From contig CBDBCY010000004.1 in assembly GCA_965203555.1 (NCBI GenBank), positions 2,176,001 to 2,240,000 of the forward strand: a DNA stretch of 64,000 nt, in the 5' to 3' direction. The number at the start of each line of letters is the position of its first letter. Position 1 is the first letter of the stretch. A program made the translations under genes and the position numbers. Origin of the DNA: Acidimicrobiia bacterium (GTDB taxonomy: Bacteria; Actinomycetota; Acidimicrobiia; Spongiisociales; ZC4RG35). Below, piece after piece: positions 53,510-62,064 of the stretch. The notes beneath the pieces are model-generated. The model had not been told where the DNA came from, did not search any database, and saw nothing but the letters and a program-made list of their open reading frames with translations.

Positions 53510-53785
53510 ATGGCTATTGTCTACTCAACCTACGAAGCCAAGGCACGGTTCTCCGAGTTACTGAGACTGGTGCGGGAAGGTCAGACGGTCACCGTCTCCT
53601 ACCGGGGAGAACCTGTCGCCGAGGTGAGACCAATCCGGCAGGCGCCCAAAAGCATCCTCGAGCGACTCGATGATCTGCAGCGCCGCGGTATTGTGGTTCC
53701 CTCCCAAGGGGGCCGGGCGCCCCTTCATCCGGTGGTACGCCGGGAGGGCGCCCTTGACCGTTTCCTGGCTGAGCGTGATGGATGA
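53510..53785 (+). CDS. vapB: Phd/YefM family antitoxin
   Basis: YSTYEAKARFSELLRLVREG..V.VSYRGEPVAE. Confidence 0.9.
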   Translation: MAIVYSTYEAKARFSELLRLVREGQTVTVSYRGEPVAEVRPIRQAPKSILERLDDLQRRGIVVPSQGGRAPLHPVVRREGALDRFLAERDG

Positions 53786-54180
53786 GTGTTGCATACATCG
53801 ACACCTCGGCTGTGGTGGCTGTCGCCTTTCATGAGCCGGGTGCCCGCGCCGTTTCCGGTATGCTGGTTAAGTTTTCTCGTCTCATCTCTTCGAATCTCTT
53901 GGAAGCCGAATTGCGCGCCGCTTTCGCTCGAGAAGATGTCCAAGTTGAGGACCGTCTTCTGTCTGGGATCGATTGGGTCTTACCGGATCGACCGCTCTCT
54001 TCCGAATACAGGGCGATATTGAGTGTGGGCCGCCTGCGGGGCGCCGACCTGTGGCATTTGGCCACCGCCCTATATATCAGTAGAGAGCCCGCTCGCATCT
54101 CGTTCATTACCCTCGACAAAGCTCAACAGGCGGTAGCCGCAAGGCTTGGATTCAATTCCCCGACGATGTCTCCGCAGTGA
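53782..54180 (+). CDS. vapC: PIN-domain toxin VapC
   Basis: AYIDTSAVV, LLEAEL, LRGADLWHLATA, FITLD; ATGA overlap. Confidence 0.9.
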   Translation: MSVAYIDTSAVVAVAFHEPGARAVSGMLVKFSRLISSNLLEAELRAAFAREDVQVEDRLLSGIDWVLPDRPLSSEYRAILSVGRLRGADLWHLATALYISREPARISFITLDKAQQAVAARLGFNSPTMSPQ

Positions 54181-58061: not shown

Positions 58062-58991
58062 GTGATGGCGACGATCGCCTACCCACCCATTCCGGTATGG
58101 GAAATCGGGCCCTTGAGGTTTTCCCTGCACGGAGTTTTCGCCGCGGTGGGTTTCTTCGCGGGTTTTTGGTTGGTGGCCCGCATGCTGGAAGCAAGAGGTT
58201 TCGATCCGGCCGGATTCCACTCGTTGGCGGTCTGGATACTGGTGGGAGGGCTGCTGGGGGCCCGCCTTCTCACCGCGCCTGCCGCCCTACTGGACGGAGC
58301 GGGGTTGGAGGCGCTCAACCCGGTGGTGGGCAACTACTCGATCATGGGAGGATTCGTGGGGGGAATAGTGGTGGGAGTTTGGAGAATTCGCCGTCTCAAT
58401 CTTCCTCTCCTGCCGATTCTTGACTTGGCGGCCTTCGGCCTGGCAGCGGGCACCTTCGTGGGTCGGATTGGCGACCTCGCCATAGTTGAGCATCTTGGCC
58501 GGGCAACTGAAGCCGCCTGGGGCTATGAAGTGCGACCCGGCTATGACCTGGCGCCCCAGCACAACGGGTTGGAATGTACGGTGGCAGAGGCAGGCCCGGA
58601 TGGAGTCTGCGGGATCTACCACCATGTCGCCTTGTATGACATGCTGGGCGCCGGGGTGCTCCTGCTGGTGCTGTGGCTGGTATACGGAAAAGCGCCGTTG
58701 CGGTACGGCCAGGTGTTTTCTTTGTGGGTCGTGTGGTACGGCCTCCAGAGGTTTGTGCTGGACTCGCTCAGGTTTGGGATGGGAGACGCCACGCTCGGAG
58801 GATTCACCTGGAATCAGGTAAGCGCACTCGGTGGTGCGGTGGTGGGGTTGGCTCTCTGGATGTGGTTTGGCAAGCGCCGGCCAAGGGTTTCCTCCGAGGT
58901 GGATGAGGGTATGGGGGCCGTGTCCACGGGTACTTCCGAAGAGAACTCACCAGTGGAGGACCATTTGCGCCATCCGCCCGATGCGGAGTAA
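58062..58991 (+). CDS. lgt: Prolipoprotein diacylglyceryl transferase
   Basis: IGPL..SLHG, GLLGARL, S..GG, GRIGD, LYD, Y...RF..D.LR, TWNQ. Confidence 0.85.
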   Translation: MMATIAYPPIPVWEIGPLRFSLHGVFAAVGFFAGFWLVARMLEARGFDPAGFHSLAVWILVGGLLGARLLTAPAALLDGAGLEALNPVVGNYSIMGGFVGGIVVGVWRIRRLNLPLLPILDLAAFGLAAGTFVGRIGDLAIVEHLGRATEAAWGYEVRPGYDLAPQHNGLECTVAEAGPDGVCGIYHHVALYDMLGAGVLLLVLWLVYGKAPLRYGQVFSLWVVWYGLQRFVLDSLRFGMGDATLGGFTWNQVSALGGAVVGLALWMWFGKRRPRVSSEVDEGMGAVSTGTSEENSPVEDHLRHPPDAE

Positions 58992-59003
58992 GATTTTCTT
59001 GGG

Positions 59004-59066
59004 ATGTTGGCAGAAGGGTTTGACCGCTATTTCGTCTTTACCGGGCCCCGGCTCCGGTGGGCATAG
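59004..59066 (+). CDS. Putative attenuator leader peptide MLAEGFDRYFVFTGPRLRWA
   Basis: 20 codons including F, Y, F, F, W, using TTT/TAT codons that are uncommon at this GC content. It lies directly upstream of a terminator and the DAHPS-CM gene. Confidence 0.7.
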   Translation: MLAEGFDRYFVFTGPRLRWA

Positions 59067-59092
59067 CGCGGACCAATAACCGGCAAGCGCCT

Positions 59093-59122
59093 GACCCGGA
59101 GCCCGGCTCCGGGTTTTCTTTT
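59093..59122 (+). terminator. Rho-independent terminator (attenuator) upstream of DAHPS-CM
   Basis: Stem ACCCGGAGC/GCTCCGGGT followed by TTTCTTTT. The alternative pairing partner GGCTCCGG (59050-59057) lies inside the leader ORF. Confidence 0.8.
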
Positions 59123-59160
59123 GCCCGAGGCCGGTTCCCGACATAAACAAGCTAAGAGGT

Positions 59161-60216
59161 GTGGCAGTGGAGAGACAAGCAACCAGGGAAAGCCGATCAA
59201 AACGCACCGTGGTAAAGGTGGGGGAGACCAGAATCGGACGCGATCCGTTTCCGGTGATAGCCGGACCCTGCGCAGTGGAAAGCGAAGAACAGATCAACAC
59301 GGTGGCGGAAACCGTGGCCGACAATGGGGCTTCGATCTTGCGGGCGGCGACTTACCGGCAGGGTCACTCTCCCTACTTCTTCCGTGGTTTGAGACTTGAG
59401 GGAGCGAAACTCCTGGCCGAGGCGGGAAGGCGGGTGGACTTGCCTGTGGCAATGCCGATTATGGAAGAGCGGGAATTGGAGGAGGCGGGCGATCTGGTGG
59501 ATCTGCTGGAGATTCACCACGGGTCCATGCAGAATTTCGAGTTGCTGAGGGTGGCCGGTCGATCCCAGAAGCCGGTGATGCTTCGTCGCGGCTCCTCTGC
59601 GACACTCGACGAATTCCTGTGGGCGGTCGAGTACCTGATGGCCGAGGGTAACGACCAGGTTATTTTGGTGGAGCGAGGCATCCGCACATTCGGAGCGGGC
59701 CATCGCGACACGCTTGACATCACCGCAGTCCCGCAATTGAAGGAGATCTCCCACCTTCCGGTGCTGGTTGATCCGAGTCACGCTTCCGGGGGCGCTGAGC
59801 GAGTTCCACCATTGGCGCTGGCGGCCCAGGGAGTGGGTTCGGACGGGCTGATCGTCGAAGTCCATCCCGAGCCTGCCAAGGCGAAGACCGAGGGCCCTCG
59901 TCAGTTAGACCTAGTGGAGTTCGCCGAGTTGATGGTGCAGTTGGGAATCAGCCGGCTTCGTTCGAGGATCGATCTGGTGGATCGGGAGATCGTGCGACTG
60001 CTGGCCCGCAGGCAGCGGCTTTCGCTCAAGATCGGCCGCGCCAAGGCCGATCGGGGTTGGCCGGTTCAAAGTTCCCGGCGAGAAACGGTGTTGTTGGACG
60101 CGGTGCGTGAGGAAGCTGTCTTGAACGAACTCGACCCGGACCAGATCGAGGAACTGTTCAATGTGGTGCTGGAAGGATCGCGCCAGGCTCAACAGGATAT
60201 GCGTTCGGATGGGTGA
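59161..60216 (+). CDS. DAHP synthase (type I-beta-like, degenerate active site) fused to C-terminal AroQ chorismate mutase
   Basis: IAGPCAVE, MQNFELL, ERGIRTF, DPSH and EVH are present, but KPRT is replaced by RQGH. C-terminal LRSRIDLVDREIVRLLARR...IG.AK...RE...SR..Q. Confidence 0.88.
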   Translation: MAVERQATRESRSKRTVVKVGETRIGRDPFPVIAGPCAVESEEQINTVAETVADNGASILRAATYRQGHSPYFFRGLRLEGAKLLAEAGRRVDLPVAMPIMEERELEEAGDLVDLLEIHHGSMQNFELLRVAGRSQKPVMLRRGSSATLDEFLWAVEYLMAEGNDQVILVERGIRTFGAGHRDTLDITAVPQLKEISHLPVLVDPSHASGGAERVPPLALAAQGVGSDGLIVEVHPEPAKAKTEGPRQLDLVEFAELMVQLGISRLRSRIDLVDREIVRLLARRQRLSLKIGRAKADRGWPVQSSRRETVLLDAVREEAVLNELDPDQIEELFNVVLEGSRQAQQDMRSDG

Positions 60217-60299: not shown

Positions 60300-60372
60300 G
60301 GCCCCGTCGTCCAGCGGCCTAGGACGCCGGCCTTTCAAGCCGGTAACGCGGGTTCAAATCCCGTCGGGGCTA
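60300..60372 (+). tRNA. tRNA-Glu (anticodon TTC)
   Basis: Acceptor stem GGCCCCG/CGGGGCT, anticodon arm CCGGC-CTTTCAA-GCCGG, T-arm GGTTCAAATCC. CCA is not encoded. Confidence 0.95.
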
Positions 60373-60405
60373 CCGCTGCTGCGAGAGCGTCCAAGCGGGG
60401 ACGGT

Positions 60406-62064
60406 CTATTCCGACGCAGTTGTAACGTAGTGGGTTCCTCGCTTGGTGCCTCGCATTTCCAAAACGCCCGCCCCGAGGAGTTCTTTCAGCAGACCCAGCG
60501 CTTGAAAACGGGAAACCCCTAGTCGTGAACGCAGGGACCGGTTCGTTACGGGACCCTCTCTTGCCATTTTTAGCACCTCGGACCTCATTTCGCTTTTGTT
60601 CAGGGGTACCCGGGAAGGGGGCGTTATCGTGCGAGCGAGACGGTACCGTGCTCCTCCTTTGATGCCGTCTTGTTCCAGGAAGCCCGCATCGCGTAGCCTG
60701 TGAAGGCTCTGGCGGGCATTGTGGCTATCAACATCGAGCAACCGTCTAGTGTAGGCGTTGGTTAACTCGGCACCGCGGGCGGCCTCGACCAGGACGCGCC
60801 GATCTACTGCTCTGAGTTGGCCCCGGGCCTCCTGTTCTCGTACCCATGCCCGTTCTTCTGGAGCTACGGGACTCTCGATGGGCAGGCGGACCGTCACATG
60901 ACCGGTTGTTTCTTCGGCAAAGACAGGCTCGGCTCTGAGGTCTGCAGCCATTTCGTCGAAGATGACCCGTATGCCACGACCAGCATCCTCGGCCATGCGA
61001 AAGTGGCGCAACGTTTGGATAACGACCCTGTTCCTTGCGGAATGCGATGTTCGGAGGTTGTCTATGGTTATTGGGTCTATTAGGCCACCAGGGGAGGTGA
61101 CCTCAACTCCTTGAGGTGTCACGTGGACTTCGACTGCCGACCCTGACAGCTGGTAGTCACGATGGGCGACGGCATTGGCCAAGGCCTCTCTTACTGCCCT
61201 GGTGGGAAGGCGGGGCAATTCGTAGGCATTGAGACCTACCACAACGAAGTCAATACCGATCTGCTCCACTATCCAGGATGTTGCTTCTCGCACCTGGTGG
61301 GCAGGGGTCCCTGATATTACGACTCGCCGGTCGTACTCCTGGGCCCCCTGTTGGTAACGAAAAAGCTCAATGTAACATTTACCGAGGGATTGTGGTGCTT
61401 CTGGGACAAGGTAGAGGGCACCGGCATGGGTCAAGGCGACATCGTGACCCTGCTGCATGGCCAACCGGCGTTGGATCAGGACATCCGAGAGGGCTGCTCC
61501 GTGCTTTGGCCCGATTTCCAGAGCTGTGCATAACTCAATGGCGAGAGTGGGGTCGACATCATCAATAGACCACCGTGATGGTCCGCTGTCAAACCCTAGA
61601 AGTGATCGTTGGTTCATCAAGCGCCGGAGATGTTCTCCCTTGAGTGCCAGGTTCTGCTTTCCCCTGCGGACCAAAGGCCTGCCGTCCGAGGTTTGAGCGA
61701 TGCCCTGCCGCCGGTCTGCAACGGAGATGACCGTAAGGCGGACCTCCCCTACCAAGACCTCATTCAGCTTGACCTGTCCTGGCGACTCGATCTCGTTGAT
61801 GGTCTCCCAGAGGTCCTTCTCTAGCCCCGCATCGAGGGGCTTGTCGATAGGCTGTCCTTGTCTATTGACTCCGATCATGATCACCCCGCCCTCGGCGTTG
61901 GAAAAGGCCACAATGGCCTCTTGGATCGGCTTGCGGCTTGATCCCGACTTCCACTCCACATGCTGGCCCTCGTCAGGGAACTGCTCTGCGAACTCTTCCG
62001 CAGTCATGAAGAGCGTTTGGTCTATGCGCTCAACCCATCGCCAAATATATGCAGGACTTCTCAC
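60406..62064 (-). CDS. AlbA_2/Schlafen-domain ATP-binding protein with HATPase-like and winged-helix domains
   Basis: EGQHVEWKS...AFSNAEGG..IGV, REALANAVAHRDY, SPGG, RN..., AEDAGRGI, two C-terminal wHTH-like segments (G.KGGARY, GTKRGTHY). Confidence 0.88.
   Translation of the reverse strand: MRSPAYIWRWVERIDQTLFMTAEEFAEQFPDEGQHVEWKSGSSRKPIQEAIVAFSNAEGGVIMIGVNRQGQPIDKPLDAGLEKDLWETINEIESPGQVKLNEVLVGEVRLTVISVADRRQGIAQTSDGRPLVRRGKQNLALKGEHLRRLMNQRSLLGFDSGPSRWSIDDVDPTLAIELCTALEIGPKHGAALSDVLIQRRLAMQQGHDVALTHAGALYLVPEAPQSLGKCYIELFRYQQGAQEYDRRVVISGTPAHQVREATSWIVEQIGIDFVVVGLNAYELPRLPTRAVREALANAVAHRDYQLSGSAVEVHVTPQGVEVTSPGGLIDPITIDNLRTSHSARNRVVIQTLRHFRMAEDAGRGIRVIFDEMAADLRAEPVFAEETTGHVTVRLPIESPVAPEERAWVREQEARGQLRAVDRRVLVEAARGAELTNAYTRRLLDVDSHNARQSLHRLRDAGFLEQDGIKGGARYRLARTITPPSRVPLNKSEMRSEVLKMAREGPVTNRSLRSRLGVSRFQALGLLKELLGAGVLEMRGTKRGTHYVTTASE

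Follow-up and report, generated by a model that had tools for sequence, protein, structure and literature searches.

Among the Actinomycetota, aroR of Corynebacterium glutamicum is the only described Phe/Tyr attenuator that we found. In the accessible part of one report its leader ORF (cg4017) is given as 78 nt long, marked LL and preceding aroF (PMC4046766); according to the portion available of another, it is leaderless, contains Phe-Tyr-Phe, and responded to Phe, not to Tyr (PMC11802643). A survey of 2005, as far as its accessible sections go, listed no conserved regulatory RNA for Phe or Tyr among the Actinobacteria it covered, and gave trpS and leuS as the only classical synthetase attenuators of this group, with none for Phe/Tyr operons (PMC1262725). 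Putative attenuators before aroAI-beta operons of Bacteroides and Thermus, taken from a prediction website, appear in the accessible part of a further paper (PMC1173090). In the literature we found neither the leader presented here nor, for this phylum, any pheS attenuator described (attenuator surveys may include related cases), and Acidimicrobiia were not mentioned among the listed matches of a literature search. An earlier interpretation of the locus, made without database searches (the sequence-only reading), referred to the established pheA leaders of enterobacteria and knew of none described for this lineage; this is incomplete, aroR being a described case from the Actinomycetota.

The leader presented here lies in a stretch of 64,000 nucleotides of an Acidimicrobiia genome (contig CBDBCY010000004.1), termed the window, and precedes a gene coding for a DAHP synthase (DAHPS)-like barrel fused to a chorismate mutase (CM). 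The element is very probably a ribosome-mediated transcription attenuator of the classical class. We consider it probable that it raises expression of the CM fusion in response to a shortage of charged tRNA-Phe and, likely, of charged tRNA-Tyr as well.

Leader ORF, predicted promoter and conservation

The 5' part of the locus comprises the following features:
58062–58991, + strand: lgt (prolipoprotein diacylglyceryl transferase; Pfam LGT), the upstream neighbour, outside the element
58989–58994, + strand: predicted -10 box TAAGAT, 9 nt 5' of the uORF ATG (TAnnnT conservation and spacing)
59004–59066, + strand: leader ORF (uORF) of 20 aa, MLAEGFDRYFVFTGPRLRWA, with ATG at 59004 and TAG at 59064–59066
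59019–59039, + strand: control codons of the uORF, F6 (59019), Y9 (59028), F10 (59031) and F12 (59037)

The uORF with its F6, Y9, F10 and F12 codons is present as the sequence-only reading had it. Four or more Phe/Tyr codons within seven codons, in any frame, occurred in 81 of 20,000 shuffled leaders. A scan of the 3.4-Mb genome for a -10 box, a start codon, clustered control codons and a hairpin with U-tract returned one site, the window leader, and no second leader of any kind.

The fusion protein was searched against 61 genomes, and for 46 fusion-gene loci (30+16) the DNA 5' of the gene was read; four other regions corresponded to CM-only matches (three) and to the second DAHPS of a genome (one). 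The leader is kept in 45 of the 46 loci, window included, a count which, like the other conservation counts, comes from related, non-independent genomes. Conservation of the uORF and its Phe/Tyr codons among orthologues, on which the sequence-only reading had made its proposal depend, thus holds. The locus without a leader (L046) is the most distant one, with 40% identity. Locus L034 differs by one base 3' of the control codons and thereby loses the usual stop; its frameshifted uORF continues across the terminator as far as the start of the gene, which may reflect a mistake in the assembly or an altered switch. A covariance model of the leader matched 108 of 151 genomes in a search of the order, own genome included, and gave weak matches outside the order. 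A pattern scan of named genomes returned at least 117 stretches, about half of them chance matches in unrelated taxa; the true matches among those listed belong to Acidimicrobiia, some of them to Ca. Spongiisociaceae.

All 45 leaders contain a TAnnnT box 6–11 nt 5' of an ATG or GTG in frame with the last Phe codon (other frame, 0), and an SD-like motif before the uORF start is found in none of them. In the window, the TAA stop of lgt overlaps the box. Genome-wide, the spacing between TAnnnT and ATG peaks at 6–9 nt (33, 50, 41 and 49 of 2149 candidate starts), with counts of 7–14 at 13–21 nt among the same starts. Since the box is located just 5' of the in-frame start and an SD motif is lacking in 45/45 leaders, the uORF transcript is likely leaderless or nearly so. 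The N-terminal residues of the uORF drift across leaders, and a core (F/Y)xYFxFTG is kept, its FTG and the codons TTC, TTT, ACC and GGG being near-invariant; invariance of the last Phe is partly built in, because this codon, not the Tyr codon, belonged to the search anchor. TAT at the Tyr position (30/45 leaders) and TTT at the last Phe (43/45) are the rarer synonyms of the genome at fixed positions (rough codon use, 0.6% TAT and 1.4% TAC, 0.65% TTT and 2.5% TTC). The -10 box, the extended 1:2 protector, the fifth segment and the likely gene start at GTG 59167, the last three described below, had been missed by the sequence-only reading.

RNA secondary structures

The transcript can form alternative hairpins from the following segments:
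59024–59070, + strand: 1:2 hairpin, putative protector (anti-antiterminator), core 59040–59046 with 59051–59058 (-19.5 kcal/mol)
59050–59062, + strand: segment 2, comprising GGCTCCGG and GGGC, which forms the 5' arm of the antiterminator (folds)
59089–59103, + strand: segment 3 (GCCT...CCGGAGCC), common to antiterminator 2:3 and terminator 3:4 (folds)
59093–59122, + strand: 3:4 intrinsic terminator, stem-loop 59093–59115 and U-tract TTTTCTTTT at 59114–59122 (fold, covariation)
59123–59133, + strand: segment 5, 3' of the U-tract, pairing with segment 4 at 59104–59114 (-18.2 kcal/mol)

The terminator which the sequence-only reading had placed before the gene at 59094–59114 plus U-tract was recovered as a stem-loop of 59093–59115 with 10 pairs, seven of them G-C (-17.8 kcal/mol). 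Its 11-nt repeat, CCCGGCTCCGG, indeed occurs at 59047–59057 and again at 59102–59112, and the proposed antiterminator strand GGCTCCGG (59050–57) is perfectly complementary to CCGGAGCC (59096–59103); the 2:3 helix is lengthened by GGGC/GCCU (-27.5 kcal/mol). The outer pairs of the 1:2 hairpin take in the Arg8-Tyr9 codons.

Protector, antiterminator and terminator helices all show compensatory changes. Across leaders, 97.3% of the cells are paired in the 3:4 terminator, with double changes at three of ten pairs; the corresponding values for the 1:2 hairpin, in the register taken from RNAalifold, are 94.4% and four of eight pairs. In shuffling controls, which here and below ignore the relatedness of the genomes, the 2:3 duplex (segment 2 shuffled) came out ahead for 38 of the 45 leaders and the 4:5 helix for 41. 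The core of 2:3 is not scorable in one alignment register, because the genus of the window pairs it one base shifted. Its extension was counted on the 66 of 82 loci outside this genus, where the first two pairs swap between U-A and C-G and are paired in 37/66 and 44/66 loci, respectively, which was matched by 0 of 2000 shuffles; at these 66 loci, pairs 3 and 4 were no better than shuffles. Several orthologous terminators, e.g. at L018, L025 and L044, have weak U-tracts.

Ribosome position and proposed mechanism

Equilibrium folds of the RNA ending at segment 3 were computed with a ribosome mask of two footprint lengths. A ribosome placed on the last Phe codon gave helix 2:3 a probability above 0.5 in all 45 leaders; the Tyr position did so in 38–39 of 45, the position three codons past the last Phe in one of 45, and the stop in none of 44. 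Stall codons -1 and 0 were the only ones giving 2:3 in all 45 leaders. The geometry suggested by the sequence-only reading, with read-through upon stalling at Phe/Tyr codons and termination with the ribosome at the stop, agrees with the mask folds (45/45 vs 0/44). Trp19 is located seven codons past the last Phe, outside the modelled sensing range, and most members of the genus have Arg in its place, so the earlier claim that Trp is not sensed is in line with both model and conservation.

In untranslated nascent RNA at equilibrium, 2:3 forms in 23 of 45 leaders (0.7 in the window leader), and a protector role of 1:2 hence needs folding kinetics. For RNA that extends through the U-tract and carries a ribosome on F12, 3:4 is favoured at equilibrium, and the value for upstream pairing of segment 3 is 0.3; when segment 5 is added to the F12-stalled RNA, this value is 0.93. 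The formation of 2:3 in 23/45 leaders without ribosome, together with the preference of the full-length RNA for 3:4 unless segment 5 is present, means that the switch depends on the order of folding.

The sequences, their conservation and covariation and the computed folds suggest a model in which transcription would start at or just 5' of ATG 59004 and the uORF would be translated. At ample Phe and Tyr, the ribosome would pass codon 15 to reach the stop and mask segment 2, upon which the 3:4 hairpin would form and transcription would be expected to end in the U-tract, around 59120. At scarce Phe (or Tyr), stalling on F6, Y9, F10 or F12 would open the 1:2 protector and free segment 2, helix 2:3 would sequester segment 3 ahead of the synthesis of segment 4, and the 4:5 helix would lock the read-through state, allowing transcription of the fusion gene. 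Shortage of Trp would not be sensed. Two metatranscriptome runs contained no reads over the leader, a result that weighs neither for nor against the model.

The downstream gene and its neighbourhood

Two features complete the locus:
59156–59160, + strand: Shine-Dalgarno sequence GAGGT, 6 nt 5' of the likely start GTG 59167 (comparison of orthologue upstream regions)
59167–60216, + strand: gene predicted to be regulated, coding for a type I-beta DAHPS-like barrel with an AroQ chorismate mutase attached at its C-terminal end (Pfam and PDB matches)

Orthologues keep GTG/ATG-GAG-AGA at the position of 59167, and position 59161 varies, suggesting that GTG 59167 rather than 59161 is the likely gene start. 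The protein comprises the Pfam domains DAHP_synth_1 and CM_2. In alignments with PDB entries 5j6f and 1vs1, the barrel reads RQGH, HHGS, LRRG, RDT and TE; we take the catalytic motifs of type I-beta DAHPS to be KPR(T/S), G(A/S)RN, LKRG, RNT and SD, none of which is intact in the window protein. In two counts of fusion orthologues, KPRT was retained by 3 of 45 and by 6 of 63, respectively, and some of the barrel replacements, e.g. HHGS and TEGP, are fixed. Nevertheless, the protein scores over the TIGR01361 cut-off despite its lost catalytic motifs, and automated annotation names the gene a DAHP synthase although these motifs are gone. Within the genus, the DAHPS-like barrel (59167–59950) shows 89% identity vs 74% for the CM domain, although it is the latter that looks active; the conserved dead barrel might serve in allostery, act as a scaffold, or assemble with the intact ACT-DAHPS. 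A single-sequence AlphaFold model of the fusion had a mean pLDDT of 37.

In the CM domain, R11, R28, K39, R51, E52 and Q88 (numbering by alignment to 1ecm) are present in 45 of 45 orthologues and S84 in 44 of 45, while D48 varies; R11, R28, K39, R51, E52, S84 and Q88 are the residues which we assume to have catalytic roles in the E. coli enzyme. The fusion gene is the only CM_2 match in the genome (95% complete), in which no CM_1 match was detected, and an intact ACT-DAHPS gene is located elsewhere, before tyrA. As judged from these residues and matches, the fusion gene is likely a chorismate mutase gene in functional terms. The codon content of the leader fits such a target, since the CM step is common to Phe and Tyr, not to Trp. 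A strict link, in which the dead DAHPS would account for the lack of a Trp codon, was rejected: the leaders of KPRT-intact fusions likewise have no Trp in the control zone.

In the neighbourhood, a tRNA-Glu(TTC) gene (60300–60374) lies just 3' of the fusion gene and is followed, on the opposite strand, by a gene with AlbA_2, HATPase_c_4 and HTH domains (60406–62064), a possible insertion at the tRNA. At 53510–54180, two short overlapping ORFs resemble, by eye, a VapBC-like pair of a Phd/YefM antitoxin and a PIN-domain toxin.

Amino acids probably sensed and leaders before other genes

Reduction of 114 DAHPS-CM loci to distinct 8-codon control zones gave 88 zones. Every one of these has Phe, 84 have Tyr and none has Trp, with 2.8 Phe vs 1.6 Tyr codons per zone. 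Both synonymous codons are used for either amino acid (TAT/TAC, 70/68). Phe is certainly the main signal, and Tyr is likely a second one.

The same leader occurs before pheS at 19 loci (five plus 14 of 40 second or weak model matches), namely L058, L101, L104, L109 and L113 and 14 among L199–L228, from at least two families of the order; pheS was identified by TIGR00468 at the two loci tested and by tblastn at the rest. With frames set by promoter-linked starts, two of the 19 pheS leaders contain Tyr, and the modelled switch behaves as in the CM leaders in 17. Nine genomes carry both leaders, with Tyr only in the CM leader in seven, in neither in one, and in both in one. The pheS gene of the window genome itself lacks such a leader. 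The leader tree cannot count origins; it neither establishes nor rejects a single origin of the pheS leaders (p-AU 0.17).

A related leader precedes aroFGH-type DAHPS genes at eight loci in one family of the order (L215–L217, L219, L220, L222, L226 and L230), with Tyr in six and Trp in three of seven distinct zones. In other classes of the phylum, eight of 15 model matches examined are leaders before ACT-DAHPS genes, all eight with Trp. In one family, 27 of 29 ACT-DAHPS loci have an aromatic-rich leader; Trp was counted in 17, inside the aromatic cluster in 15. Leaders with Phe, Tyr and Trp codons and a GC-rich terminator precede ACT-DAHPS genes of other classes at L251, L252, L256–L259, L261, L263 and L268–L297; many such leaders have CAYSAT-like hexamers upstream instead of TAnnnT. 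At L232 (G066:C1:1531075-1531214), a leader MPNLTAAVCCCACC... and a terminator are followed by a cysteine synthase-family gene (below family cut-offs), making this leader a candidate Cys attenuator. At L245 (G283:C4:114441-114580), a Tyr-rich short ORF MKVNWIKYYQYAGYG... precedes a terminator with no recognisable gene 3' of it. Homology of the distant leaders to the window leader rests on weak scores also reached by false positives, i.e., matches next to no aromatic, PheRS or Cys gene (7 of 15 examined in the phylum, 4 of 4 examined in other orders of the class, 2 of 40 in the order).

It is conceivable, if somewhat doubtful, that one scaffold was redeployed across the Actinomycetota by exchange of control codons, with Phe before pheS, Phe and Tyr before CM fusions, Phe, Tyr and Trp before many stand-alone DAHPS genes, and Cys before a cysteine synthase-family gene. 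Such a scheme would include true OR gates for two or three amino acids, and in the lineage of the window the dead DAHPS barrel would have acquired a new regulatory or scaffolding role.

Alternative explanations

The most serious rival is an attenuator sensing Phe alone, with the Tyr codon kept for RNA pairing or by descent, because the C. glutamicum leader with its FYF motif, in the accessible part of the report, answered to Phe and gave no Tyr response (PMC11802643). Tyr9 is paired in the outer 1:2 helix, and this pairing together with the preference for TAT (30/45) indicates that RNA structure may add to the conservation of the Tyr codon; moreover, formation of 2:3 in every one of the 45 leaders is restricted to stalls at codons -1 and 0, and Phe is the commoner residue per zone (2.8 vs 1.6). 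However, 84 of 88 CM leaders have Tyr, which occupies various positions and is encoded by TAT or TAC (70/68), as opposed to 2 of 19 pheS leaders on the same scaffold, and a stall at the Tyr position still gives 2:3 in 38–39 of 45 leaders. We regard sensing of Phe alone as unlikely, albeit deserving attention. A further alternative, a nascent-peptide stall at YFxFTG responding to some free metabolite or to translation stress in general, or a mainly translational output, would account for the near-invariant FTG and the codons TTC, TTT, ACC and GGG, and segment 5 is close to the SD sequence. Yet the invariant bases are the pairing bases of segment 1, the N-terminal residues vary freely while the Phe/Tyr content is kept, and the codon content tracks the downstream gene, including the Cys-rich look-alike before the cysteine synthase-family gene; the SD sequence (59156–60) is outside the 4:5 helix. 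This explanation appears improbable.

A T-box, a ligand-binding riboswitch or a protein-binding leader, in which the ORF would be incidental, is less probable still. Strong nucleotide conservation and the terminator/antiterminator pair speak for such a leader, but all 45 leaders have their start codon in frame and conservation is seen at the amino acid level. Searching Rfam, including its Phe leader and T-box models, gave four weak, unrelated matches (E up to 10) and none near the gathering score, the best reaching 19.1 bits vs 50. The least probable explanation, which had been named as a possible refutation in the sequence-only reading, is a constitutive lgt terminator followed by a separate gene promoter at 59123–59160. 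No other terminator lies between lgt and the hairpin, which could also stop read-through from that gene, but hairpin and uORF are kept at several loci with no lgt match in the upstream flank read, e.g. L021, L025, L026 and L029–L031, and no TAnnnT box is present at 59114–59170; on these two grounds it was excluded. A sigma-70-type site was not found either. This explanation would moreover leave segments 1, 2 and 5 and the uORF unexplained. We retain the ribosome-mediated attenuator responding to Phe and, likely, Tyr.

Comparison with described attenuators

The mechanism proposed is a textbook one, and with this leader, attenuation by Phe/Tyr leader peptides would reach into an order of the Acidimicrobiia that has not been cultured. 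With E. coli pheL-pheA, as presented in the accessible part of the source (PMC3082878), it shares the 1:2, 2:3 and 3:4 logic, Phe control codons and an AroQ CM target; it differs in that pheL has runs of Phe, whereas the window leader mixes Phe and Tyr, is likely leaderless and has a conserved 4:5 helix. The Phe-only pheS leaders of the order have a counterpart in the E. coli pheST attenuator, as described in the available parts of two papers, although from a different phylum (PMC11802643, PMC1262725). By its description, of which part was accessible, C. glutamicum aroR-aroF is similar in belonging to the Actinomycetota, in its leaderless ORF with Phe/Tyr control codons, and in its target in the aromatic pathway. 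While aroR controls the DAHP synthase gene aroF, the target of the window leader is a degenerate type I-beta barrel-CM fusion of an acidimicrobial genome; the aroFGH-type DAHPS genes preceded by related leaders in the order correspond in type to the target of aroR. The leaders with Phe only, with Phe and Tyr, or with Phe, Tyr and Trp codons on one scaffold constitute a natural control series, which makes the sensing of several amino acids by a single leader, apparently not a property of aroR, directly testable.
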